From a virus (lineage: Duplodnaviria > Caudoviricetes), in the IMG/VR virus record IMGVR_UViG_3300028591_000070, positions 128,001 to 192,000 of that record: DNA of 64,000 nt. The stretch is one strand, 5' to 3'. Position numbers and translations under genes: made by a program. Positions 1,817 to 56,155 of the stretch are shown here, piece by piece. Below the pieces are notes generated by a model, which was not told where the DNA came from, did not search any database, and saw nothing but the letters and a program-made list of their open reading frames with translations. Positions within the stretch are counted from its first letter, which is position 1. Each line of letters begins with the position of its first letter.

Positions 1817-1973
1817 CTACCTTTTTGAACTATTCTCCAATAATGGTCCATTGCTTCTTTAGGATTTTCATAAAAATAAAATAAGCCTAAATACTTTTGA
1901 CAAACCAAATATTTTGTAGGTGTTTGCCAAAGTTCAACAATACATTCACTATTGCTTCTTAGTAATCTCCAAT

Positions 1974-17000: not shown

Positions 17001-20000
17001 AAACTTTAAGCCAGGACAGTTTATTGCAGCTATTTATAATATTGACCATTTCGAGATTGTATTATGCGATGTTTCTCAATTACTATTCCATTTTGATAAC
17101 TCAAGAAAATATCTCTCTGAAAGAGAGTATAGAACATTCTTTGGATTAAACTCTAAAGCAAATGGAGCTTCATTAGAAGGTGAAGATTATATTGATAGAT
17201 ATCCATTCTTAATCAATGAAAAAATTGAGTCTATTTCAAATACTATTAAGTTGAGAGATTATGAAGAGCTCGTTCCAGGTTCATATTCTTCTATGAATAG
17301 AGTTTGTATTCCATTCACAGCAGAAGGATTTAGATATTTAGAAGATGGTTCAATCTCAAAAGAAAAAGAAAAGATTTTCCTTACAGAAGACTATATTTTC
17401 TCAGATGATGAAAATAAAGTATTATTTACATATAACATGATTGATGGTAAACCTGTAAAGTTTGCTATTTATCAGGAACAGAACAAATACTTTAAAAATA
17501 TTGTAAATAATGTAGTTGGATATTCAAAAGAAGAGGTTCTTACAAAAGATGGCCTTATTCAGAATGGTATCTTTACACCTGTTTCTGGATTTGACTTCAG
17601 TGGCTCAAGTTTAAGTTTGAATGATAGAATTTTAAGTCTTAAGCCAATTGATATTCGTTCAGCTTATGGACTTTATTTAGAGCCTCGTTTATTCAGTAAA
17701 TATACAACTATTTCTGGTACACTTAAAGGTATTATTGCAGATTCAGATATCGAAGAAAGACTTTATGGAAAAGTTTTGAAATGGAATGTTTCTCATGAAT
17801 TTGGAACTGGTACAAAAGAATATCTTAATAGAGTTTCATTTGCATCAGTTTTGGATAATTTCCGTCCAAATAATAAACAAGATGAAACAGTTTATCAAGA
17901 AAATAGTTTGACATTTGATAAAGATTCATTTGAAGACAAAATTATATCTGCTCCTAAGATTACAAAAGTGAATATCTTGGATAAGATTTCTACAGAAAAT
18001 GGAGTAACTTATTATAAGAATAATCTTATCGTTGAAGGTACAATTGATGAAAAAGACCCAACAGTTATCAACTTTGGTAGTACAAAATCTATTGATGCCT
18101 TAAATAATGTACAGGTTGGTGATAAGATTCTTGAAATTGCTTCTCTTACAAATGGTTCAAATACATTTAATCAGATTGATGCCGACCTTACAGGTATTAG
18201 ATTTATTGATTATAGAAATAATAAACTCTTGATTTGTGCTGACTCAGGTATGAAAGTAAGAGAAATGAGTGAGTTTACACTCGAGAATGTTAAGAGAATT
18301 AATGGTTCTACAAGACAGGACTACATCTTAGATGATGAAGTATTAACTGGTTCTGTAAGTCCTTCAATGCTTATCTGGGATAATGACCAAGAAAATTGGA
18401 TTTTAGCCCTTAAAGAAGCAAATGCTGAAATAGGTCTTGGAATGTATAATATTTCTTTCCAAGATGATAATAGAATCGTTCTTATTAAGATTGATGAAGA
18501 TCTTGAAAAAGATAATGACTTCAATAAGTTCCAATTAGTTGACCCTTACATTACTGAAAATCTTGATAAACTTAATAATTCAAATGATAAATTAATTTCT
18601 CATAAATATAGCGAAGGTAGAATGCTTGCAAGAGATATGGCCATTCGTGAAATTGATACAACAATCAATAAAAAGCCATCTAGAGCAACTGTTACTGTTG
18701 AATATAAAGAAACAAATGGCAAGATTCAGCCTAAATCTCCTATTATAGAATATGATGCATCACCTAGAAATTACATTGAATTAGATTGTACTATAAGCAA
18801 TACAAAAGAAGAAACAACTCTTAAATTAAAGAAAGATAAAGCTTATTGGTTGTTTGACAATAGAATTGGTAAGTGGATTTTCTATCAGACAAATAAGGGT
18901 TCTGAGATTCATATTGGTGACCAAGGAAAAGATTCTCTTAATTTAAGACTTTATTATGTTGGTTACAATACAGCTAAAAATATTGGATTAGACCAGACAT
19001 TTGAAACAGATGCTTGGGGATTTGCTGATGCTACAGAGGTAAATGATAATACTTTAGCTCAAGGTGAGTTCTTATGGAAATTACCTCGCCCAATGTATGA
19101 CAATGAAATTATTGCCGTACAAGTTGAAACACAAGCTTCTTATGAAAAGAGCTCAAATGTTGATGATAAAGATAATAAGTATTCAGAAATTGATGTTTAC
19201 GCCGAGATAGCGGGCGCAACAATTTCAGACGTAGCTATTACAACTAAAGACATTCTCACAATTGGTACAGAAGCTTATGATAATCATGAAGCTTTAAGAA
19301 ATAAAACAGACTTCGATAGATTACCATATGTAACAGGACCTTATATTCCTTATGAGGATAAGTCTAAAGTTATTAGAGGTTGCTCAAACTCAGATGGTTA
19401 TGAAGCTGTTTTGGTAGGTACAAATATCTTTATTAAGTCTCCTACAAAACTTTGGACTTCTGACAATAATAAACATTATACTCCAACTATGGAAACAGAA
19501 GAGTTCTTCTGGAAACGTGCAAAACTTCCAAGATTTAGAGATATTTCTCATGGTGATATTTCTAAAATGACTATTGAAGATGCATTTACAAAAGTTGCAA
19601 TTATGCGTCTTATGGTTTTGGAAGACCTTAAAACAAACTTCCCAGAGTCTGCATTCTATGCTTGGCTTAAAAATAATGAAGTTGTTCATTATGAGAATAT
19701 TGATGATATTCCAACAAAAATCACAATGAATGATGTATCTTATACTATTACTGCTAATGGTACAAGACCTACATATTTCACAACACTTAAAGATGGCGAG
19801 CTTGTTCCAGAAAGTGTAGTATATGGAAAAGCATTGCATTTTGAAAATTATATCGCAGCAGAGGATGTTGACCTTTCATTAGGATATGCTTCAAACTCAT
19901 ACTTAAAAGAGCAGATGTATCTTTCTTATTTGAGAGATTTCTATGAAATTATTTTAGGTTGCAATAATATTACAAATATGTTTGAAGAAGGAATAAAAGA

Positions 20001-23000
20001 TATTAAGATGTCTAATACTTGTCTTATTATTACTTCTTATAACAATATCATCATGAGTTTGCCATTCTCTAAAATGACAAGTAGAGATGATATTGAAAAC
20101 ATGAATAACTGGAATATGCTTAGTCTTAATACTGACTACGAAATTCCATGTTGTGATAATCATTCATATCAGAATGGAAATTATATCTATAAAGATAGTC
20201 AGAATGGTATTGTAACTTATAACTTTGGACCAAAATTATCATCATTCTTTGCTTATGACCTTACTTGCTCATATGTTAAGGATGATATTCAGGTTTATGG
20301 TGGTACATTAAATCTTGATAATCAGGCTGTTTCAGATTATTTGAGCTTCCTTAAAAAGTTTGATGGTGTAGATTATGACTATTCTTGGATGGATAAATCT
20401 AATGTAAATGCATTTAAGAATAAACATTTATTCATTGCTTATTCAAGTGATAATGGTCGTACATTCACTACAGTTGACCTTACAGAAGCTGGTATTCAGA
20501 TTCCAACAATGGGTTCAAATGTAAATGCAATTTATAGAATAGATAATACTATTAGAATTCTTTATAACAAGAGTTCTGATAAGATTTATAATTATGATAT
20601 TATAATTAAGGATGACTCTCTTGAAGAAAGTTTGATTGAAAAAGAATATACTGAATCTGACATTAAGTATAAGCTAATGAATAAAAATTTCTATATTGGT
20701 GGTGGCTATGAATGTTTAATCAACTCACCAGTAGAAAAGAATAGCTTTAATTCAAGTGTAGATAGTTTTATTATCTCAATGCCAGGTGCTTTCTCAGGTG
20801 GTACTATTTCTATAAAATCTGCTACTTCTATCACTTATAATCCAACAAATGTATATGATACAGATGGTGGAAACTTAAATGTTAGAGTTCTTTTAGCTAT
20901 TCAGACTTCTAAACAGATTTATGATCAGTTCAAATACCTCGACTATAAAGAAGATTACTTCAATATGCAAGGTGATTTAAGAGTAAGCGAATCTGAAGAG
21001 GTATTGAATTCATCAACTGCTGATAGAGCATTCTCATTAAATGAAACTTTACCACTTGCTCAAGAGTCAATTTATAGTATTCCTTCATTAGCTGTTGATA
21101 CTGGAGATAAAGGTACTCATAACATTTATAAATATAATGTTTCTCTTAAGAATGGCTCAAATGAAAAGGTTTATAACCCAATTCCTATGACAAACTTTGA
21201 AGGTAATGACATTTATCTTTGTGGTATGGTTTCTCAAGAAGAAGGAAAGAAATTCTTAATTTATAGAAACAGAACTATTGGAAGTTGCATGACATTTAAG
21301 GATATTCTTAAATCATATAATAGTTCACCAGATATTATTGACAATATCCAGAGAATGTATGATATAAATGATGACTTTGAGTTTACTGTAAATGATGAGT
21401 TCTTAACAAATATTATCAATAAATATGCAATTGATAAAAATCTCATCTTAAAAGAAATTCATTTTGAGAATGAAAATCCTCATATGATAAATACTACAAG
21501 TGAAAATACAGATGAAGATATTATCCAGATTTTGAATAATAAATACTTCTTAAAGTGGCCTACAATCGATGGTGCTTTATGCGAAAAGCTCTGTGGTGAT
21601 TTAGGACTTGAATTTGATGAGTATGATGGTTCTAATACTGATGATGGCCTTAAAGAGTTTTTAGAGAAGTTGCAGCTTCTTGAGAAAGATTTAGGCAACC
21701 TAACAGATGAAATTATTAGATCATACTTTAAACCAATTAAGGTTTACTATAATGAAGATGACTACTTCTATGGCGTTTATGAGATTAGTTCATCTACAAT
21801 TTTAATGACAGAAAGATCAATCAAAGAAGTTATTTCAATGACTTATGAGTTTGGTTCTACTTTCAATTATTTGGATAATTCAATTCTTACAAGTACTACA
21901 GATTTGGATGAAAATAATTTGAGTATGTATACTGCTGTATTAAATACTCAATATGATGAAAACTCTTTAATAAACGCAATTGCTATTGATCCGGTTGGTT
22001 ATGGAGCTTCAATAAGCAATAAGAAATGGGATAATAAGCTTCCTCAAGATATTGACCCAGCTGCTTGGGTTGAAAATACAATGTTGTTCAACTCAAATGG
22101 AGAGCCAATCTTCTTATGCGACACAAATGGAAATAATGTCACAATGAGAAAAGGTTTATTCTATGGTGAAAAAGGAAATGTTTATACAGTTTCTCATGAT
22201 AATCTTTATGCTGAAGATTCAGTTATTGACATTTTTGATGGCAACTTGGTTGATAATAAATCAACATTCCATTTCTATAGTTTACCTGAGTCTGAAATAA
22301 AGATTTGGACACCTTTTGAAAAAGTTGACCTTAAAGATACAGTAATTACTCCATTTAGAGTTTATAGAGGTGGTATTGCAATTTCTAAAGAAGAATTTGA
22401 TGCTCACTACACTTTAACTTATAGTTCTCTTTATAAGAATGACCTTACACCTTATGTTGGTTTAGCTATCACTTATGATGGTGAAAAACTTGCATTTAAG
22501 GGAAGTTATAATGGTGATGCTCTTGTTGAAAATGATGTTCTTAATATAACTATAACAGATAATAGATCTGGAGCTTCAGCTTCTATAACTCTTGAAGTAG
22601 AAAATAACAGCTTCAAAGTTGTAAATGTTCCAAATACATATGAGGCTTATACAGAAGATGATTCACAACAAATAACTTATGTTATCAATAGAGAACTTTC
22701 TAAGATTTCTATTCCAGATAATAATATCAGTGGAGCAATTTCTAGAGAAAATGGAAAAACAAATTTAGCAATTACAATTGCTAGATGGCCTGAAAAACCT
22801 TCAATTATCATTTATGATAATGATGGTAATTCAGCAAATCTTAAATTGGATGTTGTTAAATTAAATCCAAAGCTTTATACAGATAGAGATTGGATTAGTG
22901 ACAATTTAGATGTAGATGGAATAAATTGTAAAGTATACTCAGAAGATGTAGATATTACAGATAGATATGTTATCACAAAAACTAATAAACAAATTAAAGC

Positions 23001-24333
23001 TGTTTGTAAGTATTCTGCACTCTCTATTCTTACAAAAGAAATTAAACAAGTTGAGTCTAATATTAAAGTAGGTGATATTGATTACAACAATAAGTTTGTT
23101 TATTCTTATGGTGAAGAAAATACATTTGTTGTAAATCGTCAGGAAGACTTCTTAATTAGAGGTTTATTTGGACAAGTAATTCTTCTTGCTCCAGCATTTA
23201 AAAACTTTAAAGACTTAATTACCTCTCTTGGAAGAATGATTGATACTGATGTTGAAGAAATTTATAATGTTGAGACAGCAGATGAAAAAATCTCAATTGT
23301 AAGTATAGATACAACAAAAGTAAGTATTGACCACTTATTAGATACTGAAGCACCTTATTTAAGGATAAAGCTTATGCCAGTTTCTTCTATTATATTGCCA
23401 TCAGACCTTATGAATAATAAGGATTACTATACTGAGATTAGTATTGATGATATAGACTTCTATGGTTATGATAGAGTTTGGATTAATGAGAATGTATTTA
23501 TGGCTCCTCCATTAAAAGTAGAAAATCAATACTTTAATACAGAGAGTGTTGCACAATATACAGTTGAGTCTTGGAAAAACAAAGATGGATATTCAGTATA
23601 TCTTTCTGATGAAAATGGTAAGTATGTTAAAGGATTTATCAATAATCATAAATTGAATTATAAGGTTATTGGTGATGAATTTGGAAATTGCTCACAAGAA
23701 GTTTATCAGAGTGTAAATCCTAGATTAAATCCAACTGAGCTTATTTATAAGACTGCTTATGATTATTACTATAACACATATTATAGTAGTGTTAGAAGAA
23801 GCAATCCATTCTTTAGATTCTTGAAGATTAACCAAAATATTATTGGTGAGAATATCATAGATGAGATTGGACTTTATCAGCAGCTTAAAGAGAATAATGT
23901 AATAGTTCTCAAGAAGGATAATGACTTTAATGTAATTAACAAGATCACATTAGACCTCGACCTAAATCAGACTTATAGTCTTGATGATATTATTGATGAA
24001 AAGAAAGGAGAACTAAATTATATTATAACATGCACTCCTTCTGATGAAGAATATAGCTATTTAGCTGGTATTAAATATAAGAATTACATGTATGATAGTG
24101 ACATTGTTTCTGATAAAAAATATTGTAAAGTAGACAGTAATTTAATGGCTAAGTTTGCAATACTTTCAAAAGAAGATGTAACTAATACTGAGTATAAGCC
24201 TATAGTCAATATCACAGAAATGGGTATCTTCAGTAAGGAAGGATATTTGTTAGCTTATATGCACCATCCTATCGTGCAATATAATACAAAAACAAATCAC
24301 ATCTCATATAACTTAATTATAGAGAATGCATAG
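11038..24333 (+). CDS. Giant (4431 aa) virion structural protein, probably baseplate wedge/tail-fibre attachment
   Basis: C-terminal 'ITEMGIFSKEGYLLAYMHHPIVQ' resembles tail-collar/baseplate ends; preceded by ACTAATT motif; acidic, Asn/Tyr-rich. Confidence 0.6.
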   Translation: MKKFQPNSDLYNNFYDGYTSSDEFIAKKRIHTTNEIPPLSIYKNLHSMLQRDFWKNLVGDTEIIYDEYYNLDTDGKETFDRNGDIKEMSVAKYTNGIRSLNYGPIPRLVWNKNWKKDYENYLQQVEDGEAFDEGKTANDFKYIVDNSETKYNRFEVTGVFEPQKDLMMHEAYRYLSCIYPDHPDYLNILTKNEFDDKIDDSACLIDYKIDIPFMDWLPKYFEYIEGINTQIAQEDEAAKLKIRNLKNYAMNRKFFGAKEGYKMFAASAFQHASIYSASQYIPLEGGNVSSFGTPKNVDITWFKEFFDQPEEFTNSDIDKGHYLYKKLFRNIDWQNSSYDFINRYKEPTPFYGTAYPTPNSRFVLYEYPNERIIDTLDKQEGRSTDDLYGTIRADFKEGQKIKVSGQKQNWEEGSYKEGHISYITSETYYKVRAILGYNKSGDYMPSKSELEEHHIDNAITVVNVDTPLQPLYKNFSVYPSNGKILQLISDHDNNPELIEHDKDLPIEEKWAIHKSDADVMLPYFQSLEMEQPFYCSTIVLENIYGDIKGELSRFNEAPKVKTAKITLDPHQDGCIFIAPQQQISEFEEALNITLNIDSWFDENVAKPASKIIYGTTNLSDKAFLKEGDYIVSEDKKYISSVLGLSSAFLQFSLTGKGTDYELINKKVEAMNKETTARHGVVFALSGNNPEAAGKRVIVFGKPTFEDVTSMDNDPRKFSSKGVYFDVKAIPTTKDHAQLRFIYGSRFASIAAQKYQDLRQLYKDDYLSIADEYAKNLLDNLLLIDESFKALDERVEKTRESIKNESIYYNDYSAKKYDYYMDTTISAMLLRKVLQKQAEKTYKPYDDELNGKIDDLVKTYRNTCNYELTMAGDTTYANLETARNIYTDSLVDAWNGFNKVFNEEYNKFYKAISNLVEDGTDLEAPKIKKNLEKNYKIVNEKLNILYNAILDYTQVYNDSNWTDISQPLEDLLGWFDRFKDSRTLIREAYTKLFKDGKDAEQIYLNSCIQSLKEFNDVYYPQYVEYTKALNNSENDVHEELESVEHLFSAISYYYDEIENTLNQRKTVTKDVTDSFKDAFYDYTNFIISSCGKGSYDERGMAAFKKDYNKKLQEFITLEIKAKEVVKKYVDEYMTWFSEEIAIYFDDEQFYSDVIDIKSSDPEIRNLSLDILGCDTVLFTEMLPNKAFLLAPLPKDLLMRKELEGDFSYSLLTDQDYFQDIVSFKKNEFDDLLELEAESIFGRSGLLTNCKSVSMDAWSFGSINTATLAETHYDEDIFDYVTEDVALKTEADKNFLGDYYQSNKPWINDYYIDDPQAAELEVKQYKYFDLNQDIYTLMNDTDMTHKFAYCDPNMLEMFLTDEDKNNIRGEVLNFNKVKINCHTVQDSNVVTLEERASIRKLDYITTGCQVIGKTVDDDTYVEAIDLEDHSITLNKPMQITGEFVFTFLCKIQYEPDDVSEDFYNYRIAASKNKEVSNNSIFEHGVIDTLNYGEISDYMLSSYIDFAVFREALTDNLQEQPYYKENFNLLVRNFYNRYLGTARENDVFVKPSMIENEDDIFFELNAYNLLGEDYIMRQEILDYFYQYLDEMTKASDDIHLGVAVNGYTLNDGKVFHGDSAFSDKNIHAKFITTDDWKDYEPFYIKIGCGCIPGIFDEKEIVDHDENDELVGRSLYNEHDDPYGSALYNGSQVEVQDNTQRKHYYDIGDPVFKARLGEYEIQKNIMFNDFSSDRVFNTIQFSVMKRIIDSFVDDNTITIANSTVSNWNGLQTWPKNCYTIDDLYIMGENGEAAELKDINFLGEWSPKIENDEIVFPEKPLYDNVLNYYVITNNYSFIVDEKEVNYKPGQIIIWENDKWIVKTFYAAGFIGDSYSAAKYITGKYEDEAITTGSNLIITETTDFRAVILYKVLNSIGCYTNIATAANYGYSKLLELYQNALAFFKEEKTIDEVNESVYPIELDPTCKNTFDENTCYWFEYIGYDADFADALANRNFKPGQFIAAIYNIDHFEIVLCDVSQLLFHFDNSRKYLSEREYRTFFGLNSKANGASLEGEDYIDRYPFLINEKIESISNTIKLRDYEELVPGSYSSMNRVCIPFTAEGFRYLEDGSISKEKEKIFLTEDYIFSDDENKVLFTYNMIDGKPVKFAIYQEQNKYFKNIVNNVVGYSKEEVLTKDGLIQNGIFTPVSGFDFSGSSLSLNDRILSLKPIDIRSAYGLYLEPRLFSKYTTISGTLKGIIADSDIEERLYGKVLKWNVSHEFGTGTKEYLNRVSFASVLDNFRPNNKQDETVYQENSLTFDKDSFEDKIISAPKITKVNILDKISTENGVTYYKNNLIVEGTIDEKDPTVINFGSTKSIDALNNVQVGDKILEIASLTNGSNTFNQIDADLTGIRFIDYRNNKLLICADSGMKVREMSEFTLENVKRINGSTRQDYILDDEVLTGSVSPSMLIWDNDQENWILALKEANAEIGLGMYNISFQDDNRIVLIKIDEDLEKDNDFNKFQLVDPYITENLDKLNNSNDKLISHKYSEGRMLARDMAIREIDTTINKKPSRATVTVEYKETNGKIQPKSPIIEYDASPRNYIELDCTISNTKEETTLKLKKDKAYWLFDNRIGKWIFYQTNKGSEIHIGDQGKDSLNLRLYYVGYNTAKNIGLDQTFETDAWGFADATEVNDNTLAQGEFLWKLPRPMYDNEIIAVQVETQASYEKSSNVDDKDNKYSEIDVYAEIAGATISDVAITTKDILTIGTEAYDNHEALRNKTDFDRLPYVTGPYIPYEDKSKVIRGCSNSDGYEAVLVGTNIFIKSPTKLWTSDNNKHYTPTMETEEFFWKRAKLPRFRDISHGDISKMTIEDAFTKVAIMRLMVLEDLKTNFPESAFYAWLKNNEVVHYENIDDIPTKITMNDVSYTITANGTRPTYFTTLKDGELVPESVVYGKALHFENYIAAEDVDLSLGYASNSYLKEQMYLSYLRDFYEIILGCNNITNMFEEGIKDIKMSNTCLIITSYNNIIMSLPFSKMTSRDDIENMNNWNMLSLNTDYEIPCCDNHSYQNGNYIYKDSQNGIVTYNFGPKLSSFFAYDLTCSYVKDDIQVYGGTLNLDNQAVSDYLSFLKKFDGVDYDYSWMDKSNVNAFKNKHLFIAYSSDNGRTFTTVDLTEAGIQIPTMGSNVNAIYRIDNTIRILYNKSSDKIYNYDIIIKDDSLEESLIEKEYTESDIKYKLMNKNFYIGGGYECLINSPVEKNSFNSSVDSFIISMPGAFSGGTISIKSATSITYNPTNVYDTDGGNLNVRVLLAIQTSKQIYDQFKYLDYKEDYFNMQGDLRVSESEEVLNSSTADRAFSLNETLPLAQESIYSIPSLAVDTGDKGTHNIYKYNVSLKNGSNEKVYNPIPMTNFEGNDIYLCGMVSQEEGKKFLIYRNRTIGSCMTFKDILKSYNSSPDIIDNIQRMYDINDDFEFTVNDEFLTNIINKYAIDKNLILKEIHFENENPHMINTTSENTDEDIIQILNNKYFLKWPTIDGALCEKLCGDLGLEFDEYDGSNTDDGLKEFLEKLQLLEKDLGNLTDEIIRSYFKPIKVYYNEDDYFYGVYEISSSTILMTERSIKEVISMTYEFGSTFNYLDNSILTSTTDLDENNLSMYTAVLNTQYDENSLINAIAIDPVGYGASISNKKWDNKLPQDIDPAAWVENTMLFNSNGEPIFLCDTNGNNVTMRKGLFYGEKGNVYTVSHDNLYAEDSVIDIFDGNLVDNKSTFHFYSLPESEIKIWTPFEKVDLKDTVITPFRVYRGGIAISKEEFDAHYTLTYSSLYKNDLTPYVGLAITYDGEKLAFKGSYNGDALVENDVLNITITDNRSGASASITLEVENNSFKVVNVPNTYEAYTEDDSQQITYVINRELSKISIPDNNISGAISRENGKTNLAITIARWPEKPSIIIYDNDGNSANLKLDVVKLNPKLYTDRDWISDNLDVDGINCKVYSEDVDITDRYVITKTNKQIKAVCKYSALSILTKEIKQVESNIKVGDIDYNNKFVYSYGEENTFVVNRQEDFLIRGLFGQVILLAPAFKNFKDLITSLGRMIDTDVEEIYNVETADEKISIVSIDTTKVSIDHLLDTEAPYLRIKLMPVSSIILPSDLMNNKDYYTEISIDDIDFYGYDRVWINENVFMAPPLKVENQYFNTESVAQYTVESWKNKDGYSVYLSDENGKYVKGFINNHKLNYKVIGDEFGNCSQEVYQSVNPRLNPTELIYKTAYDYYYNTYYSSVRRSNPFFRFLKINQNIIGENIIDEIGLYQQLKENNVIVLKKDNDFNVINKITLDLDLNQTYSLDDIIDEKKGELNYIITCTPSDEEYSYLAGIKYKNYMYDSDIVSDKKYCKVDSNLMAKFAILSKEDVTNTEYKPIVNITEMGIFSKEGYLLAYMHHPIVQYNTKTNHISYNLIIENA

Positions 24334-27032: not shown

Positions 27033-28265
27033 TTATTTTTCCTCATCTGATGCTTTAAAGTTATAAATAGGTTTTATAATAGATATAACATCAGCATTTT
27101 CTTTAATATTATCCAAAATCTCATCAGCAGATTTATAAGCCATTGGAGATTCATCAATTGTAGAAGTACTTACACAAGTAGTATAAATATCCTTCATTGC
27201 CGCCTTAAAATCTTCCATCTTCAAGCATTCTTTTGCTTTAGAACGAGACATTAAACGACCAGCTCCATGTGGGCCAGAGAAGTTCCAGTCTGGGTTTCCC
27301 TTACCTTTTACAATCAAAGAACCATATTCCATGTTGATTGGAATAATAGCTTCTTCACCTTCCTGAAGAGAAATTGCGCCTTTACGCAAAATGCCATTTT
27401 CAAGGTCGATATAATTGTGGATAGTACAAAACTTACCAAGAATATGTCTTTTTTTAATTCCCATTTCTTCAATGAGAACATCAAGCATTGCTTCACGATT
27501 TAAGCGAGCAAACTCCTGGCAGATTTTCATATCATGCAAATATCCATCCAAATCTTCGCCTTCAAGATATGACAACTCTCTAGAAATTATAACTGGTGGA
27601 AGCTTAGCAATTTCTTCCTGAATGTCTTTTTCACGACCTTCTTTTTTAAGTCTGTTAATAAGTTCATTCTTAGCAGAAGAATTATTTTTATGATAAGCGA
27701 TTGCTTTATTTTCCCAGTATTTAGCAACTACAATTCCAAGGTGACGAGAACCAGAGTGGATTACAATATAATAATCACCATTCTCATCTTTATCGATTTC
27801 AACAAAGTGGTTTCCACCACCTAATGAACCCATAGCATAAAGTTCTTTATCATAGTCGGCATCCGCAATAAGCTGTTTAATGTCAATATTTTTTGTAAAC
27901 TTATGGTAAGTTGAACGATGGCCCGCTCCTGATGGAACTTTAGTATGCATGATCTTATCAAACTTATCCAAACCTGGCTTATTAAATAACTGCTTTCCAG
28001 CTTCTGCAGAAATTTTCAAAACAAGCATTCCACAGCCAATATCAACTCCAACCATATTTGGATTGACGCGAGGATTCTCTTTATTGATCTTCTGGGTAAA
28101 TCCAATTGTGACACCTTTTCCACTGTGTACATCTGGCATAATAGCCACATGGCATCCCTCTGTAACAGGATTATTTGCAAAAGTATATAATTGAGATAAT
28201 GCCTCATCCTCAACTGTTGAGGCATATACATTCATTTCGCAAAACTTACCTTTAATAGTAAACAT
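27033..28265 (-). CDS. rtcB: RtcB 3'-phosphate/5'-OH RNA ligase
   Basis: 'MPDVH.GKG', 'VGVDIGCG', 'GSLGGGNHF', 'HSGSR', 'HNY', 'HGAGR', 'DESPMAYK'. Confidence 0.97.
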   Translation of the reverse strand: MFTIKGKFCEMNVYASTVEDEALSQLYTFANNPVTEGCHVAIMPDVHSGKGVTIGFTQKINKENPRVNPNMVGVDIGCGMLVLKISAEAGKQLFNKPGLDKFDKIMHTKVPSGAGHRSTYHKFTKNIDIKQLIADADYDKELYAMGSLGGGNHFVEIDKDENGDYYIVIHSGSRHLGIVVAKYWENKAIAYHKNNSSAKNELINRLKKEGREKDIQEEIAKLPPVIISRELSYLEGEDLDGYLHDMKICQEFARLNREAMLDVLIEEMGIKKRHILGKFCTIHNYIDLENGILRKGAISLQEGEEAIIPINMEYGSLIVKGKGNPDWNFSGPHGAGRLMSRSKAKECLKMEDFKAAMKDIYTTCVSTSTIDESPMAYKSADEILDNIKENADVISIIKPIYNFKASDEEK

Positions 28266-35264: not shown

Positions 35265-35393
35265 AAAAGAAATAAGAATAAGCAAAAGAGTTCTGTGGGA
35301 CTTGAACCCACAAGCCATAAGGCGTTTGATTTGCGATCAAAATGAGTATACCAATTTCTCGAAGTAACTCTTTCAAACTGCATTATTTCTTTT
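35265..35393 (-). ncRNA. Y-RNA (YrlA-like) module carrying a non-permuted Leu-type tRNA body
   Basis: AATGCAG..GAGTTACTTCG motif and terminal stem; internal D arm, tttga-TCGCAAA-tcaaa, V arm, T arm. Confidence 0.7.
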
Positions 35394-35397
35394 ATAA

Positions 35398-35479
35398 TGG
35401 GCCTGGAGAGATTCGAACTCTCAATCCTTTCGGCGCCTGCCCCTTAAACAGGTGTGCATACCAATTCCACCACAGACCC
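35398..35479 (-). tRNA. tRNA-Leu(AAG) (operon A)
   Basis: cctgt-TTAAGGG-gcagg, long V arm. Confidence 0.85.
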
Positions 35480-35487
35480 AAATAAAG

Positions 35488-35882: not shown

Positions 35883-35931
35883 AAAATAAAAAACCCTCTC
35901 GATTTTTTCGAGAGGGCTCTATAAAAATTAA
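35883..35931 (-). terminator. Attenuator terminator A
   Basis: RNA cccucucga/ucgagaggg hairpin plus U-tract directly before the first tRNA; 5' arm complementary to the end of leader A. Confidence 0.85.
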
Positions 35932-35960
35932 ACTTATTATGAATCTATCACATATCAAAT

Positions 35961-36068
35961 CTAATTTCTATAAAGTCCTCCACCGAATAGGAGTATAAAC
36001 ATTTGCTGTAAAAACAAATGTAACTGGCTGAGAAAACTAAACTGATGTAAACTCATTGTATTGTTCAT
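35961..36068 (-). CDS. Leader peptide A: MNNTMSLHQFSFLSQLHLFLQQMFILLFGGGLYRN
   Basis: SD aggag; residues 5-28 use only M/S/L/H/Q/F/I, the tRNA set of operon A. Confidence 0.85.
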   Translation of the reverse strand: MNNTMSLHQFSFLSQLHLFLQQMFILLFGGGLYRN

Positions 36069-37935: not shown

Positions 37936-37962
37936 AAAAAAGAGGCTTATGAAAAGCCTCTT
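37936..37962 (-). terminator. Terminator ending tRNA operon B
   Basis: aagaggctt-..-aagcctctt plus T-tract on the minus strand. Confidence 0.8.
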
Positions 37963-37967
37963 AAAAG

Positions 37968-38045
37968 CCGGAGTAGTAGGAGTCGAACCCACCTTAAAAA
38001 GCTGGTTCCGTAGACCAGTGCACCAATCCGATATGCCATACTCCG
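37968..38045 (-). tRNA. tRNA-Arg(ACG) (operon B)
   Basis: ctggt-CTACGGA-accag. Confidence 0.85.
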
Positions 38046-38056
38046 AAAAATAAAAA

Positions 38057-38128
38057 CAGGAGCGGAAGGACTTGAACCTCCACCTGCAGGTTTTGGAGAC
38101 CTGGATGCTACCATTACACCACGCACCT
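38057..38128 (-). tRNA. tRNA-Trp(CCA) (operon B)
   Basis: caggt-CTCCAAA-acctg, G73. Confidence 0.9.
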
Positions 38129-38137
38129 ATATTAAAT

Positions 38138-38211
38138 TGAGCCCGGACAGATTCGAACTGTCGACCCTAACATTAAAAGTGTTATGCTACTACCATCTGA
38201 GCTACGGGCCC
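38138..38211 (-). tRNA. tRNA-Lys(TTT) (operon B)
   Basis: taaca-CTTTTAA-tgtta. Confidence 0.9.
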
Positions 38212-38220
38212 GAATTGTAG

Positions 38221-38307
38221 TGAGCGTGAGAGGATTTGAACCTCCGATGGGATTTCTCCGGAAGATTAAGAGTCTTCTGTATTCGACCAAGCTATACTAA
38301 CACGCCC
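38221..38307 (-). tRNA. tRNA-Lys(CTT) with long variable arm (operon B)
   Basis: gaaga-CTCTTAA-tcttc plus 15-nt variable region. Confidence 0.8.
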
Positions 38308-38317
38308 ATTTAAGAAG

Positions 38318-38401
38318 TGAGCGTGAATGGAATCGAACCATCCTAGAGGAAAAATCCTCCCAGATTAAAAGTCTGGTGCACGACCAATGTGCCACACGCC
38401 C
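38318..38401 (-). tRNA. tRNA-Lys(TTT) with long variable arm (operon B)
   Basis: ccaga-CTTTTAA-tctgg plus gagga/tcctc hairpin. Confidence 0.8.
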
Positions 38402-38466
38402 ATTAAGATAAATTGTGTTTCCATTTAATTCTGGCCACTTTCTATCCCAATGGACCGAACAGAAAG

Positions 38467-38634
38467 TTATGGCCTCTGTTTCTTCTTCATTTCTTCTTCA
38501 AATTCCTCTAAACGTTTCTTCCGTTTTTCCTCTCTAGATTCTTTATTAGCTTTGGCTTCTTCAGATTCTTTCATTATGTATTCATAAAGCTTTTTAGCTC
38601 CAGGTCCTTTAAATCTTGGTGCGCCACAATCCAT
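38467..38634 (-). CDS. Small Glu/Lys-rich protein (55 aa, MDCGAPRFKGPGAKKLYE...) inside operon B
   Basis: SD aaggaga, open frame; below the ORF-track size cutoff. Confidence 0.55.
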   Translation of the reverse strand: MDCGAPRFKGPGAKKLYEYIMKESEEAKANKESREEKRKKRLEEFEEEMKKKQRP

Positions 38635-38653
38635 ATAAAAAATCTCCTTTAAG

Positions 38654-38726
38654 AGATGGAGGTGGGAGTCGAACCCACAACGATAAGTTTTGCAGACTTA
38701 CTTCCTAGCCTTTCGGATTCTCCACC
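38654..38726 (-). tRNA. tRNA-Cys(GCA) (operon B)
   Basis: taagt-CTGCAAA-actta, U73. Confidence 0.9.
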
Positions 38727-38805
38727 ATAAACTTATTCATTTGTACAAACTTTTAGTTAACATCAATTTCTACGCCACATTCGAGTAATTGACAAACCTT
38801 AGGCT

Positions 38806-38877
38806 TACTGGATGTAGGAGTCGGACCTACCTAAGTCGTCTTGTAAGGGCGATACCTAGCCGATAGGTTAATCCAGT
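38806..38877 (-). tRNA. tRNA-Val(TAC) (operon B)
   Basis: tcgcc-CTTACAA-gacga. Confidence 0.8.
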
Positions 38878-39087
38878 ATAAAAACATATCATGCAAAATA
38901 CTATATAGTCTAAATATAAATGCTGCAGTTTCGAGATTAATCCTAAACCAGTACTTTGCTTCCCAGTTTGTATAGTTCGTCACACTTAGAAACAAATTAA
39001 GCAGCTTTAAACTACTTCTCCCATATTTTGTTCGATATGTCTGTTATTAGGTAGATCTCACTCAACCAAAGCTGATTTCTACCATAG

Positions 39088-39161
39088 TAGTCCAAGATGG
39101 AATTGAACCATCAACCTTCAGTTTATCAGACTGACACTCTAACCATTTGCGCTATTGGACT
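39088..39161 (-). tRNA. tRNA-Ile(GAT) (operon B)
   Basis: tcagt-CTGATAA-actga. Confidence 0.9.
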
Positions 39162-39169
39162 ATAAAATA

Positions 39170-39241
39170 AGTCGTAGATGAATTTCGAAATCACGACCTC
39201 CGAATTGGCAATCCGGCGCTCTGCCTCTGAGCTACTACGAC
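39170..39241 (-). tRNA. tRNA-Gly(GCC) (operon B)
   Basis: ccgga-TTGCCAA-ttcgg, U73. Confidence 0.85.
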
Positions 39242-39247
39242 ATGCAT

Positions 39248-39354
39248 ACCATAGAATATTGCAAAAAGTTTATAATCGCGTTCCCCCATAAATATCCTAA
39301 AAATTAAGATACTTATGGCGGAGAACGAAGTAACTCTTTGACTCCGCTTATGGT
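39248..39354 (-). ncRNA. Y-RNA-like module with long-hairpin cargo
   Basis: AAGCGG..GAGTTACTTCG, terminal stem accata/tatggt. Confidence 0.65.
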
Positions 39355-39359
39355 TTTAG

Positions 39360-39520
39360 TCGGTCGGCAGAGAATCGAACTCCACTTTCCCTTTTACTCT
39401 CACAGAGATGAATTCTACTCCAAAAGGCTTCATTCGTAGTTATTCCTTTCTTCTGTAAAACCATATCTCTATTACCCTCAAGGTGTATTCCTTTCATCTA
39501 CGAAAATCCAGGACGACCGA
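39360..39520 (-). ncRNA. tRNA-shell RNA with large internal insertion
   Basis: Acceptor tcggtcg/cgaccga and T arm GGAGTTCGATTCTC flank >100 nt. Confidence 0.55.
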
Positions 39521-39527
39521 TAATATT

Positions 39528-40106
39528 TTATATCCTTCCAGGTCTAAAACCTTCAGGACATTCTTTTGCTTTTATATTAATTTCTCCATTTGTATACCAA
39601 TGAGTACCAAATTGAGAATTTTTAGATCCTTTTTGATGTTCACTGTTTGTTAAACCAATTTTTCTTTTGGTTTCTTCTGAATGATGTTTACCAGTGAAAG
39701 TATCGTGTTTTTTCCAACCACAATTCTTAAAAAGATCTGGATGTTTTTCTCTTGTAGACTTCCAAGTTTTAGACATCTTAGAATAGTCTATAAACTTTGA
39801 AGTATCTCCTCCATCACCACCTTTAGCAAGATTATATTCTGCTTTACCAATAAGCTTTTGGCAAGCTATCATACATCTTTCAAAGCGATTAATTTGTTCT
39901 TTTGAGAAGAAACCAGAAACAAGAATTCTTTTTTTAAAAGACTTTTTTCCATATTTCTGATATGCTTCTCTAAGAATAGAACCAGAACCCATATATGTAT
40001 CAGATGTAATTGTACGATCTTTACGCACAGTATGCTGACCTATATAAGTTTTTCCATTCGTTAAATTTGTAATTTCATAAATATATCTTATTCGTAATTC
40101 ACTCAT
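39528..40106 (-). mobile_element. GIY-YIG homing endonuclease (Seg-like, NUMOD3)
   Basis: 'YIYEITNLTNGKTYIGQH', 'YMGSG', 'YNLAKGG', 'GKHHSEETKRKI'. Confidence 0.9.
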
Positions 40107-40136
40107 AAGATAATTAGTTAGAAATGTACAAATGAG

Positions 40137-40207
40137 TGGACACAGCCGGCATCGAACCGGTTAAACCTCCGTGCAAAAGAGGTGAGATGCCAAACCTCCC
40201 CAGGCCC
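40137..40207 (-). tRNA. tRNA-Ala(TGC) (operon B)
   Basis: Loop TTTGCAC, G3-U70. Confidence 0.75.
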
Positions 40208-40358
40208 ATAAAATAAGAGTTCTTTATATCTATAACTAAGCGCTCTATTTGTAGCTATAGATTTCACAGTGAACTTCGTGAACTTCTAATATCTGTGGAA
40301 GGCTGCGATTTTAGCTTATTAGTTCTAAAACCTCTGACACCAGTACCTTCAACGAGTT

Positions 40359-40432
40359 TGGAACATGTCGGACTTGAACCGACGACCTTCAGCTTGCAAA
40401 GCTGACACTCTAGCCAACTGAGTTAATGCCCC
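40359..40432 (-). tRNA. tRNA-Ala(TGC) (operon B)
   Basis: tcagc-TTTGCAA-gctga, G3-U70. Confidence 0.9.
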
Positions 40433-40440
40433 ATATAAAA

Positions 40441-40514
40441 AACATATAGAATAAAACTTGCGAGCTATATTTCAAACCCAAATCGAAGTAACTCACAAAA
40501 GCTGCTTATATGTT
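40441..40514 (-). ncRNA. Minimal Y-RNA-like module
   Basis: AAGCAG..GAGTTACTTCG, terminal stem aacatata/tatatgtt. Confidence 0.65.
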
Positions 40515-40519
40515 CTTAG

Positions 40520-40593
40520 CGAAAGCCATAGGACTCGAACCTACAATCTCCACCAACCCCTAGGTGGTGATGAACCAATTCATCTCTGCTTTC
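40520..40593 (-). tRNA. Atypical tRNA-Pro-like (AGG/GGG; 8-nt loop) (operon B)
   Basis: ccacc-TAGGGGTT-ggtgg; D and T arms intact. Confidence 0.5.
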
Positions 40594-40597
40594 AAAG

Positions 40598-40688
40598 CGG
40601 AAGCGGCAGGAATTGAACCTGTAAGACGCCCTCATCAGGCAATCGGCTGTTTTCAAGACAGATGAGCTCACCAATGCTCAGCACTTCC
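40598..40688 (-). tRNA. tRNA-Ser(TGA) (operon B)
   Basis: Loop CTTGAAA, long V arm, G73. Confidence 0.85.
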
Positions 40689-40702
40689 ATAATAATTTTT
40701 AG

Positions 40703-40778
40703 TCGGGCAGAGAGGACTCGAACCTCCGTTGAATGCTTGGTCCCAAACCAAGTGGCATCGCCGCTAGCCGACTGCCCG
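40703..40778 (-). tRNA. tRNA-Pro(TGG) (operon B)
   Basis: cttgg-TTTGGGA-ccaag. Confidence 0.9.
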
Positions 40779-40952
40779 ATAAACATCTTCGTGGAACTGG
40801 ATCCCTTGTTATACCACATTAGCTATCGCAATCACTTTATTGACTAGATAAAGTGCTCTACGAAATCACTACCAGACCCATATTGGTAAGCTACTTCATT
40901 TGCTATAGTCATCACAAATTTTTTACTTATTCTTCCAATACAAGAAAGATTT

Positions 40953-41023
40953 TCTGGTATGATGGAGTTGAACCACCGCCCCAAGTCTCCAAAGCTCGCA
41001 TGCTACCGTAACACCTATACCAG
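40953..41023 (-). tRNA. tRNA-Pro(TGG), first gene of operon B
   Basis: Loop TTTGGAG, C1-G72. Confidence 0.8.
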
Positions 41024-41027
41024 ATAT

Positions 41028-41068
41028 AAAATAAAAAAGGTCTTTCATTTCTGAAAGACCTTAAGTAA
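41028..41068 (-). terminator. Attenuator terminator B
   Basis: RNA aaggucuuuca/ugaaagaccuu plus U-tract; 5' arm complementary to the end of leader B. Confidence 0.85.
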
Positions 41069-41090
41069 ATCTATAAAAAAACTTATAACC

Positions 41091-41228
41091 TTACTTAAAG
41101 TCTTTCTCCTTTTTACCGGCAATAACCCATTTAGAAGAACAAGGCACAATACGAGGGGCAACTGCTTTCGCAGACGCAATAGAAGAGGCACAAATAATTG
41201 AACGACCGATAATTCCATTCTCTACCAT
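41091..41228 (-). CDS. Leader peptide B: MVENGIIGRSIICASSIASAKAVAPRIVPCSSKWVIAGKKEKDFK
   Basis: SD aaggag; residues 5-40 use only G/I/R/S/C/A/K/V/P/W, the tRNA set of operon B. Confidence 0.9.
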   Translation of the reverse strand: MVENGIIGRSIICASSIASAKAVAPRIVPCSSKWVIAGKKEKDFK

Positions 41229-41342
41229 AATCTTATTCTCCTTTATATTAAGTTTATACTATAATTAGTACAGTTACCAAAAATAACTTAATAAAATATT
41301 AACATTGTTTTTAGTATTTTATTAAATTATCTTCAAAAAAGA

Positions 41343-42230
41343 AAGCTGAGATTTATTGACTTTCCTCTGCGTCCATCTTCATCACTTTCGCAACTTAACC
41401 ACACTTTCATTTCTGAAAGTAGAACGCATAGCGAATAACTTAAAGGTGTTATCTACCTACTACAATAAGACTAATAATTTCATTTTTCATCCCTAGCGGC
41501 TTGCGGCCTAAGAAGCTTGCGGGCTCCTACCAGTTGATTACTTCAATCCATTCTTGACTTTCCTTGCGGTACTCACCAAGTCAACATATTACAGTTGAAT
41601 AACGCTATTTTCATCTTATCGTGACCAACACTTTTGCTTATCATGGCACAAAATGCTGGACTTGAACCAGCCACATTTAGATTAATAGTCTAACGCTCTA
41701 TCCTACTGAGCTAATTCTGTAATTATCGGTGAACTTCCTTGGGAGACGAGGTTGACCTTAATACCATGGCACCTTTTGAGTGCTTTAGGTAAATCGCCTC
41801 TCTTTTTTCGTCTGCTAAACTACTCAATCTAATAAAGTCAACATCTCTCACTTTCGCTTAAGCGTCAACATAATTCGTTATCATCTCACTCAGAATTTTG
41901 CATGTTCTTATTAGATGATATACATATCCCATATGTAAGCTTTCGACCCACATTCTTTTCAATCTTGTCTTTTAGACTTGATCTAAGCTCGTTGTTCAAC
42001 CGAGCAATACCACTGCAAACCTCAGCATTTGCCATCAATCTGCGCCATAGTATCTTGAATATGTAGTTTTCGTATGAAGTGATAAATCACCGCTGCACCT
42101 TTACGAATGCAACTTTCGCCGCTTATGAATTCACGGTTTATTCTAACGACTAGAAACCAGCCGGTGAACCCGAAGGTTCGATTAAATTACTGAGGATTGA
42201 ACCTCTATAACCTTGTAGTTAAGTAATTTA
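41343..42230 (-). ncRNA. Large structured ncRNA, GOLLD-like candidate with embedded tRNA
   Basis: ~890 nt without ORF, many GNRA/UUCG-capped hairpins (cGCAAg x3, gGCGAAAg, cUUCGg), own upstream TGTTAATAT motif. Confidence 0.5.
41644..41720 (-). tRNA. tRNA-Asn(ATT) with encoded CCA, inside the large ncRNA
   Basis: ttaga-CTATTAA-tctaa, G73-CCA. Confidence 0.8.
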
Positions 42231-44813: not shown

Positions 44814-46499
44814 TTATTGCTGATTTACAGCATGTCTACCAGCTTTCTTGGCCTGTTTTTCCTGGTCTTTCTGAGCTTCGATAGCATCCCACTGCTTGAT
44901 ATAAGCGTCAGCGAATAATGCTTCTTTTCCTGTCCAACCATACAAGAATGCTGTACGGTAGCTCATTTCTGGAATAAGAACATTATCATATCCAGCTGTT
45001 TGACAGCTAAATACATTTACCTTTGGATTTACCTTTTTGCGATATTCCTGAATAAGTGCATAAACATTGATCATATGACCCTTACATCTGAAGCTTCTGT
45101 AGTCATCATCATTAAGACCATATAATCCACCTGTTCCTGCCTGCTGGTCTGAGAAAATGAAAATATTATCATAAACTTCTTTCTTTGCAATTGCATCTTT
45201 GAAGAATAACCAAATACCATTCTCAGTACCACCACCTACATCGTTATCTCCTCTGCTTGATAAAAGCTTTGTCTGAGCAAGAGCACCATTTCTCTTAGAA
45301 ACTGGAGATGTAATAAGTCTGTCACCAAATTTACCAACATAACCTTCATCTGAAGCTTTTGCAATTAAAATTGAAGACAAGTTGTCAATATCAGCAATAG
45401 TAGTCCTTCCATATTCAGAAGTAAATCCATGCCATGCAGAACCTGAGTTGTCAGAAAGAACCATTGTCTTTCCCTTCAACTTTGGTAAGTTTTCAATTGC
45501 AATGTCCATACACTCTTCAAGAGCATCAAGAATTAAAGTCTGGTGATTGATACCTGAAGCCTCTTCAATCATCTGATATGCATTCCAATATCTGAATGGG
45601 AACTGCTTACCTTTAAGGACTCCACCTTTCAAATCTTCCAAAACTTTCTTACAGAATTCTGTGTCTTTTACATCTGTGAAGATGTTTCTCAAGTTGCGTA
45701 AAAGAGCCATGTGCTGCATACAGCCTGACTCATAGATTTCACGCCAACCCATTCCAGCAGAGCGTTTCTGTTCCCAAGTTTCCCTGTCTTCAGTAACCTT
45801 TACTGTACCTGTCTGCATCAACTCATTCAAAACTGGTGAGTTTGCATGAGAAATACGAACACCATTGATCATACCAATTTCGTGGTTCTTGTATTTGTTA
45901 ACAGCATAAGCATCCAATGAGCTAAGTTTCTTAGCAATAGACTTTTTCAAGATTGTTGGAATCTTGTTTTTCTTACCACCATTAATATACATGTAATATG
46001 TAAGCTGAGTAAGTGGCTCATCTGCACGAGACATAACCAACTTTTCTACAGCTGCAAACTTTCCAGGATTTGCATTACAGAAATCAGCACGCTTTGGATG
46101 GATTGCTGCACGTACCATAATAACCTGTGGATTAAGGCGCATATTGTATGTTTTACGCAAATCAACTGCAAAGTCCAAAGTTCCGCCAAAGTCATAATCC
46201 AATGCCTTATCAATAGCTTCAGTAAATACCTCTGTTGTTGATTTTCCTGCACTAGCAGAGAAGATTGCATACATAGCTGGATCGGTAAATTCCTTTTGCC
46301 AAGAGAATTTTCCATCCTTTACATCTTTTCTGTAATAAGAAGCCTCACCAAAAATTGATGATGCTGAAATCAACTTGAGAGTATCAAGTGGATTTACTTT
46401 GTAAGAATCGCCACCCATAAAGTTTGTAACGATTTCATCTGGTCTAAGTTTATTCATCTCATTCATCTGAGATACTGCTTTAGCCATTTTCTTGCTCAT
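44814..46499 (-). CDS. rsr: Ro60/Rsr TROVE-vWA RNA-binding protein
   Basis: 'NFMGG.SY', 'MALLRNLRNI', 'FPFRY', vWA MIDAS-like 'SDNSGS', 'IFSD.Q'. Confidence 0.93.
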   Translation of the reverse strand: MSKKMAKAVSQMNEMNKLRPDEIVTNFMGGDSYKVNPLDTLKLISASSIFGEASYYRKDVKDGKFSWQKEFTDPAMYAIFSASAGKSTTEVFTEAIDKALDYDFGGTLDFAVDLRKTYNMRLNPQVIMVRAAIHPKRADFCNANPGKFAAVEKLVMSRADEPLTQLTYYMYINGGKKNKIPTILKKSIAKKLSSLDAYAVNKYKNHEIGMINGVRISHANSPVLNELMQTGTVKVTEDRETWEQKRSAGMGWREIYESGCMQHMALLRNLRNIFTDVKDTEFCKKVLEDLKGGVLKGKQFPFRYWNAYQMIEEASGINHQTLILDALEECMDIAIENLPKLKGKTMVLSDNSGSAWHGFTSEYGRTTIADIDNLSSILIAKASDEGYVGKFGDRLITSPVSKRNGALAQTKLLSSRGDNDVGGGTENGIWLFFKDAIAKKEVYDNIFIFSDQQAGTGGLYGLNDDDYRSFRCKGHMINVYALIQEYRKKVNPKVNVFSCQTAGYDNVLIPEMSYRTAFLYGWTGKEALFADAYIKQWDAIEAQKDQEKQAKKAGRHAVNQQ

Positions 46500-55241: not shown

Positions 55242-55280
55242 AAAATAAAAAAGCTCTCCGAAAGGAGAGCTCATAAAACT
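55242..55280 (-). terminator. Attenuator terminator C
   Basis: RNA agcucucc-uuuc-ggagagcu plus U-tract; 5' arm complementary to the end of leader C. Confidence 0.85.
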
Positions 55281-55300
55281 TTTTTAATTATATAGTTTTA

Positions 55301-55402
55301 TTAACTCTCTCTTTTATACAAAGTAGTTTCTTCTGTCCCATAATCATATGTTACATTTTCATAAGAGAAATTATTATTGTAATCATAATTCATAGTAAAC
55401 AT
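55301..55402 (-). CDS. Leader peptide C: MFTMNYDYNNNFSYENVTYDYGTEETTLYKRES
   Basis: SD ggagg; 23 of the first 27 residues are M/N/Y/D/T/E/G, the tRNA set of operon C. Confidence 0.85.
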   Translation of the reverse strand: MFTMNYDYNNNFSYENVTYDYGTEETTLYKRES

Positions 55403-55789
55403 TGAAAATCTACTCCTCCAAATTAAGTTTTATATTTTAATTAGTACAATCATTAAAAATGATTGATGTATTTATATTAACATACTTTTGAAAAGTATGC
55501 TAAATATTTTCAAAGAAAAGCTCCAAAACTTTCAACTGATTAGAAAGAAAAAAGCTTATGCTAAAGCTCGATCCAACTTGCTACAATAGGGTAAGCTAAG
55601 CTGATTGTCCATACTTTAGTTTCATTAATCGGGGATGCCCGATTAAAGGCAACCTTCCACCACCAAGTTTCATTAATGTTTCTGAGAAGGAAGCTTCAAA
55701 AAACCTGGAAACAAATACCTTATTTAGAATATACTCAAATCTTATAAAAAGTTCAAGTAATTTCTAATGTTTTTCCATTTACAAATAAA

Positions 55790-56155
55790 TGGACTATGTG
55801 GGAATCGAACCCACGTCCGAACTACTCAGCACTAATAGAACTTCTACTAGATGGTGTCTTAGGTTAGTTTTTCTTGGACCTAGCAATATCAACTATAGAA
55901 CTGTTCACTAAAATTGAAGTTGACACAAAATTAGCTACTCGACTCGGTTTAGTAACAACATTTAAGATACTGAGTCTTCCTACTCAAATGCCGTCGGAAA
56001 AGATTATACTCTTCCGATTAAGCTACAAGGCGAGCTGCCTTGCGAGCTGTTCTGCTTGTTCTGTTAGCATTTATTTGGTCTTTGACTAGTTTTTTCTCTA
56101 GGTTCTGCCATCATTCTACCAGCCATTTTATAGCCGTCGAAACCGGGAATAGCCC
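55790..56155 (-). ncRNA. ssrA: tmRNA; tag reading frame 56068-56018 = ANRTSRTARKAARLVA*
   Basis: 5' GGGCTAT..GGTTTCGAC, 3' GACGTGGGTTCGATTCCCACATAGTCCA with G3-U70; resume context ataaatGCT. Confidence 0.9.

Follow-up and report, generated by a model that had tools for sequence, protein, structure and literature searches.

The element at positions 41028–41228 of the 64,000-nucleotide viral DNA stretch analysed here (the window) is very probably a ribosome-coupled leader-peptide transcription attenuator, and we interpret it as a sensor for the supply of the tRNAs encoded by its own operon. An attenuator had been proposed for this site in a preliminary description, and the proposal is supported by the composition of the leader, the geometry of the predicted fold, 17 close homologs and the leaders of related phages, which track regrouped operons. 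The element would govern tRNA genes, and its match extends to codon families, so the signal is likelier to be the availability of functional isoacceptors than starvation for amino acids in itself. The features of the element and its operon, of which the leader ORF and its Shine-Dalgarno are read directly from the sequence, are as follows.

41296..41303, minus strand: GTTAATAT motif, possible promoter element, also upstream of leaders A and C
41262..41269, minus strand: ACTAATTA motif (within TGTACTAATTA), probable phage promoter of the T4 late type, common to the three leaders
41238..41243, minus strand: Shine-Dalgarno AAGGAG, 9 nt upstream of the ATG, retained in homologs
41091..41228, minus strand: leader ORF B, 45 codons plus TAA
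41109..41213, minus strand: putative sensing region, codons 6–40, every codon readable by operon tRNAs
41091..41106, minus strand: antiterminator 5' strand (final codons and stop)
41069..41090, minus strand: AU-rich hairpin in the spacer, lengthening the antiterminator helix and holding a U7 run; its sequence varies in homologs and its pairing stays
41053..41068, minus strand: antiterminator 3' strand, of which 41062–41053 doubles as the terminator 5' arm
41028..41062, minus strand: intrinsic terminator with an 11-bp stem, a GAAA loop and a U-tract ending 4 nt short of the first tRNA gene
37967..41024, minus strand: tRNA operon B, 15 tRNA genes (Pro, Ser, Ala, Gly, Ile, Val, Cys, Lys, Trp, Arg)
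39528..40106, minus strand: GIY-YIG endonuclease ORF within operon B, missing from some homologs
37940..37962, minus strand: terminator closing operon B

The leader and its codon match

Operon B encodes, in order, Pro-TGG (two copies), Ser-TGA, Pro-AGG (called by relaxed ARAGORN only), Ala-TGC (two), Gly-GCC, Ile-GAT, Val-TAC, Cys-GCA, Lys-TTT (two), Lys-CTT, Trp-CCA and Arg-ACG. Wobble-A tRNAs, which are rare in bacteria, are seen at three places in the window, namely Pro-AGG (40519–40593), Leu-AAG (35397–35480) and Asn-ATT (41644–41720), and the Pro-AGG gene reads GGG in two homologs (L142 and L143).

The 36 codons from 5 to 40 of leader B specify only A, I, S, K, V, G, P, R, C and W, and all ten occur. 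The earlier claim that these are precisely the specificities of the downstream operon, with W and C included, agrees with the tRNA calls between 41024 and 37967, which give exactly the same ten amino acids. At the level of codons the match holds for the 35 codons from 6 to 40, a run that assumes four-way U34 wobble for Ala, Val and Ser, and stops short of codon 5 (GGA), which is not read by Gly-GCC, the only Gly tRNA of operon B; its reader, Gly-TCC, belongs to operon A. Given the codon usage of the genome, the chance of such a match is 0.48^36 = 4e-12 by amino acid and 0.41^35 = 2e-14 by codon. Leader B holds the longest run of operon-readable codons in the six frames of the genome (35, followed by 23, 18 and 14), and the longest run drawn from the same ten amino acids in 287 long ORFs is 20. 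Codon families are matched as well: the six Ser codons are all TCN and none is AGY, with Ser-TGA in the operon, and both Arg codons are CGT, with Arg-ACG in the operon, in a genome where AGA makes up 62% of Arg codons. ATA is absent among the Ile codons. Three of codons 41–45 (Glu, Asp, Phe) fall outside the set of ten, as expected because a ribosome stalled there would itself cover the helix.

The predicted switch

A 16/16 complement with one G-U had been noted between 41106–41091 and 41068–41053, and it is confirmed here. The 3' segment had also been equated with the terminator 5' arm, which is true for 10 of its 16 nt (41062–41053), the other six being spacer. The U7 run in the spacer is a possible pause site. 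Folding was modelled for the RNA from 9 nt beyond the A site to the end of the terminator 5' arm, a modelling choice made because equilibrium folds of the whole leader gave no clean switch. The predicted probability of the antiterminator is then 0.89–0.91 with codons 1–37 in the A site, 0.77 at codon 38, 0.54 at codon 39, 0.23 at codon 40 and about zero after that; the predicted loss, at codons 40–41, coincides with the end of the matched codons. The other five leaders that were folded show this step too, close to their ends. At several stall positions, equilibrium folds of the full-length leader put the terminator ahead (0.7–0.9 at B codons 9–25, and about 0.9 throughout for leader C and for the leader of the related phage G005), so the switch would depend on the antiterminator forming first.

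Neither a 1:2 pause/protector hairpin of the trp type nor a pause site was identified in leader B. When no ribosome is present, folding gives a probability of 0.89 for the antiterminator and 0.12 for the terminator, and the untranslated leader is probably the on state in this model. As a 1:2 hairpin is lacking, read-through would be expected whenever translation of the leader is blocked.

Sister leaders and regrouped operons

Two further units of the same layout lie on the same strand of the window.

55253..55402, minus strand: sister attenuator A, 33-codon leader (55402–55301) and terminator, before Asn, Tyr, Asp, Met, Thr, Glu and Gly-TCC tRNAs
35894..36068, minus strand: sister attenuator C, 35-codon leader (36068–35961) and terminator, before Phe, Leu, His, Gln and Ser-GCT tRNAs

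The leader-by-operon matrix is diagonal, with leaders A and C fitting their own operons and not the others. Codon-level matches to the own operon are 34/35 for B, 20/23 for A and 21/25 for C; set against the two sister operons, leader B matches 3/35 and 0/35. The Ser codons of leader C comprise three AGY and no TCN. A tRNA-Cys was called in operon C (35286–35371, minus strand), following a Y-like motif of the kind described below; it has no Rfam tRNA match, and as Cys codons are absent from leader C, it is possibly not a working tRNA-Cys. Directly upstream of operon A lies a tmRNA gene with an Arg/Ala-rich tag peptide (55787–56155, minus strand).

The strongest test comes from a related phage (G003; 301 kb, capsid 67% identical) in which the tRNAs are grouped differently, in two operons: Pro, Arg and Trp lie with Thr, Asp, Asn, Gln, Glu and Tyr, and Leu, His, Phe and Met lie with Ala, Ser, Lys and Gly. 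Each operon has its own unrelated leader, antiterminator and terminator, and the leaders follow the new grouping, with 29/31 and 35/38 of their codons, respectively, matching the own operon vs 6/31 and 4/38 the sister operon. In G005 (capsid 59% identical) there is one large array and one leader, which contains Met and 16 other amino acids; neither Gln nor Val occurs in the leader or in the array.

The single leader of G005, with most amino acids before one large array, would also suit a general sensor of translation stress, in which the same switch is turned on by any slowing or failed initiation (ribosome damage, antibiotics, host shut-off) and the codon match merely biases the response. The high antiterminator probability of a leader free of ribosomes, with the untranslated state on, points the same way, and general translational stress induces a cyanobacterial tRNA operon (PMC10272220). 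Such a sensor leaves unexplained, however, why the code is split three ways in a pattern that mirrors the operons and why leaders follow operons that have been regrouped. We consider it improbable as the main function, although it can coexist with the sensing of tRNA supply as a side effect.

Close homologs of leader B

Leader B has 17 related small proteins of 39–46 aa, with two distinct N-termini and with in-frame deletions near the end that keep the frame. Their peptide core is 73–93% conserved. At positions 6–40, 558 of 571 homolog residues are within the ten amino acids, although only 16 of 27 distinct substitutions stay within the set, vs about 50% expected at random. The closest viral contig differs by four changes in codons 12–34, all synonymous, and has the same ten tRNA specificities downstream. 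The terminator stem has no change in five aligned homologs. Antiterminator pairing in five homologs is preserved in 119 of 120 cells (24 pairs each), with 8 of the 24 pairs varying; co-variation of pairs among these five close homologs was not above a shuffle control (91/500). A pattern search for the promoter and Shine-Dalgarno together found one homolog only among 102 loci. Operon C of some homologous strains contains a 75-aa ORF with a TACO1/YebC N-terminal domain (L139, 15556–15783; L142, 16669–16896), which is not in the window.

Spread across viruses and bacteria

A locus pattern that required a U-tract directly before a tRNA D-arm, and nothing else, gave 68 viral loci. An ORF of 18–60 codons ends 10–60 nt upstream in 30 of the 40 terminators that precede tRNAs. 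In sets of leaders that were chosen after viewing and include related phages (perhaps ten to twelve lineages), and for which permutation values are optimistic, the residue match of 23 leaders to their own operon was 0.78 vs 0.42 when permuted (permuted maximum 0.58; 0/100,000 reached the observed value), and the duplex between the leader end and its own terminator arm in 25 leaders had a mean of -13.3 kcal/mol vs -7.9 when permuted (lowest -10.4). Candidates at seven loci, with low antiterminator scores or with one or two tRNAs, were outside the permutation set (L155, L159, L164, L171, L191, L192 and L221). Wherever a genome has a sister operon as well, each leader fits its own operon better.

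The duplex bears on a further possibility, that the long helix is a processing signal of the RNase III type or a control of precursor stability and has nothing to do with termination. A helix of 24–26 bp, nearly perfect in homologs, could be expected of such a signal. In many leaders, however, it is only 6–9 bp, and in most of the 25 it shares sequence with a canonical U-tract terminator, so that the two are mutually exclusive, and we give this explanation very little credence.

Where an operon has a single Arg codon family, the leader uses that family in 9 of 9 cases; the match of Ser codon families over all leaders is weaker (19/27). These families help to separate the sensing of tRNA supply from that of amino-acid starvation, as performed by the trpL, hisL and ilv leaders. 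The textbook trigger is stalling on uncharged tRNA, and omission of an amino acid would probably trigger leader B too. The tRNA products are nevertheless unable to relieve starvation, and the choice of TCN in leader B, AGY in leader C and the served Arg family elsewhere argues against it, if less firmly for Ser overall, which makes starvation sensing quite unlikely.

Judged from sequence, the design appears to recur in about ten other viral lineages, in a 635-kb phage (LR745206.1), which has three such leaders, and in one Bacteroidota genome bin. Among 120 loci of bacterial genomes there were 28 terminators and 10 ORFs, of which two fit, both in an Ohtaekwangia bin (L309). These are two leader-terminator units on the minus strand of an apparent bacterial chromosome, before Asn, Pro and Tyr tRNA genes and between nuo-like genes and a gene pair for an RNA ligase and an HD/AAA protein. 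In Caulobacter phage CcrBL9, the 39-aa gp149 lies in front of tRNAs for Pro, Thr, Lys, Leu, His, Ala, Ser and Trp and consists mostly of those residues, a match by composition alone, as the terminator screen found no canonical terminator there. No leader was found before the tRNA arrays of Aeromonas phage TSW001, Rhodobacter phage RcXuper and four further genomes (G009, G025, G027 and G028), and Erwinia phage FBB1 has a single weak ORF, unmatched to its tRNAs.

Genome context and expression

The window lies inside a virus record of 385,934 bp (31.7% GC) and carries all 46 tRNA genes and the tmRNA on its minus strand. This T4-like genome has genes for a Gp23 capsid protein of the T4 type and for a member of the sigma70 family. 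It has no match to the RNA polymerase beta family, and none to single-subunit RNA polymerase in a search that also gave no match in control genomes and so does not demonstrate absence. Use of the host RNA polymerase fits these gene contents. Parts of the region turn up in RNA runs that are for the most part gut metatranscriptomes of sheep and cattle, and the virus is thus probably a rumen jumbo phage. As clues to the host, the phage sigma factor gave only 25–32% matches, in unrelated taxa, an oxidoreductase gene gave no match, and an Atlas search returned viruses only; no cultured relative was found in INPHARED. The window also holds a 4,431-aa ORF (11038–24333, plus strand).

An ATG lies 3–10 nt downstream of 34 of the 48 genome copies of ACTAATTA, a motif that is not over-represented overall, and of 41 of the 88 copies of GTTAATAT, which suggests many nearly leaderless phage transcripts. 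The longer TGTACTAATTA occurs five times in the genome, including upstream of leaders A and C. No sigma70 promoter was found directly upstream of leader B.

A metatranscriptome contig from one rumen run covers 40950–41235 at a depth of 7.9, spanning the leader, the terminator and the first tRNA; as an assembled contig, from which strand, ends and level cannot be read, it lends weak support. The stretch 41240–41306 is uncovered by RNA contigs, which cannot define ends. A GOLLD-like RNA (41343–41802, minus strand; 96 bits, E 1.6e-24, under the gathering score) ends about 75 nt upstream of the promoter motif of the leader and embeds a tRNA with anticodon ATT (41644–41720). Its contigs reach depths of 1,400–3,200 in two rumen RNA runs, more than 100 times those of the leader; in the run with the contig over leader and first tRNA, the depth is about 1,400.

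The abundance of this upstream RNA is one reason to ask whether the terminator merely insulates the tRNAs from it, the ORF being either incidental or a functional small protein; the conserved peptide core of the close homologs would agree with the latter. Set against this, the peptide of leader B matches no Pfam family, its N-termini are exchanged and in-frame deletions are tolerated in homologs, and leaders from other phages are unrelated in sequence and alike solely in how each matches its own operon, a co-variation that already contradicts such a role. The insulator or small-protein explanation is accordingly as hard to credit as that of RNA processing.

Genes for an RtcB RNA ligase (27033–28265, minus strand), near the tRNA region, and a TROVE/Ro60 protein (44814–46499) lie in the neighbourhood and fit a theme of tRNA repair. 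A repeated minus-strand motif (GCAG, then GAGTTACTTC or near variants) occurs at about 54225, 54000, 53780, 51055, 42400, 40505, 39345 and 35380. Its copies precede tRNA-like modules, some apparently permuted, and two are weak YrlA matches; the modules may be a phage Y-like RNA family.

Relation to known systems

In the attenuators of amino-acid operons (trpL, hisL and pheL; the multivalent thrL and ilvGMEDA; and pheM before pheST), stalling of the ribosome leads to read-through. Like leader B, they have a short ORF rich in the sensed codons, a 3' part that overlaps an antiterminator, and an intrinsic terminator, as described for pheL (PMC3082878). Leader B differs from them in targeting a tRNA operon and not enzymes, with a match of codon families, and in sampling ten amino acids over 35 codons where they sample one to three in a short run. 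It also has no 1:2 hairpin, is phage-borne, and is one of three copies that divide the code.

T-box riboswitches, a few of which precede tRNA genes in clostridia, were searched for with Rfam RF00230 (Stem I specifier loop, antiterminator bulge), with no match at the gathering threshold nor at E up to 5. The T-box is likewise a terminator/antiterminator switch that reads tRNA status (PMC2965389), but it binds one tRNA directly, whereas the signal of leader B would be read by a translating ribosome over many codons. In Anabaena PCC 7120, a long tRNA array, the cryptic trn operon, is repressed by TrcR and silent until translation stress (PMC8421152, PMC10272220). Its control consists of a ribbon-helix-helix repressor and an operator at the array promoter (PMC10272220), and attenuation, a leader and a terminator are all unmentioned in an account of the operon (PMC8421152). 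Both systems govern a long tRNA array, but a protein repressor on DNA is not codon-specific, unlike leader B. Phage tRNAs are also known to counter tRNA-cleaving defences, as with T5 tRNA-Tyr against retron-Eco7 and the evasion of anticodon nucleases (PMC11555353, PMC10264068). These share a plausible purpose with the arrays described here, the replacement of depleted tRNAs in infection, but there the tRNA was over-expressed from a strong promoter and no feedback sensor is described. No paper on leader-peptide attenuation of tRNA genes was found in a literature search with most subscription journals outside its scope, and a 2026 review of jumbo phages does not mention attenuation.

Proposed mechanism and significance

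We propose that host RNA polymerase would start about 30 nt upstream of the ATG and that a ribosome would load at the AAGGAG, assuming that transcription and translation are coupled in the host and that the leader is translated and the terminator active. With an ample supply of tRNAs for the 35 sampled codons, the ribosome would reach codon 40 or beyond in time and cover the antiterminator 5' strand; the terminator would then fold and transcription would end 4 nt before tRNA-Pro. If any sampled tRNA is scarce, cleaved or uncharged, the ribosome would lag within codons 1–37, the helix of about 24 bp would take up 10 of the 11 nt of the terminator 5' arm, and the 15 tRNA genes would be transcribed. 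Fresh tRNAs would speed decoding of the leader and close a negative feedback loop, and the three units, each with its operon, would split the code between them. The switch probably responds when certain tRNAs are lost or overloaded in infection, for example through cleavage by host nucleases (PMC10264068, PMC11555353), and this would be its purpose.

We lean, with some reserve, towards a broader reading, in which these leaders form a widespread, unpublished class of attenuator: a mini-gene would sample every codon family that its tRNA operon serves, and large phages and some bacteria would use it to detect the loss of particular tRNAs, including cleavage by anticodon nucleases, and to switch on the matching set only. 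What phages gain from tRNA arrays has been an open question for more than 50 years (PMC10264068). Sampling of the operon's codons by its leader would mean that arrays respond to a specific tRNA shortfall, and it makes the depletion hypothesis testable with a 200-nt element; gp149 of the cultured phage CcrBL9 (host Caulobacter CB15) is a candidate for a test in vivo. Such leaders could predict the limits of operons and the identity of their tRNAs, and may offer compact sensors for tRNA supply or anticodon-nuclease activity. Ribosome-mediated attenuation would thereby be extended from the enzymes of amino-acid metabolism to the tRNA pool.
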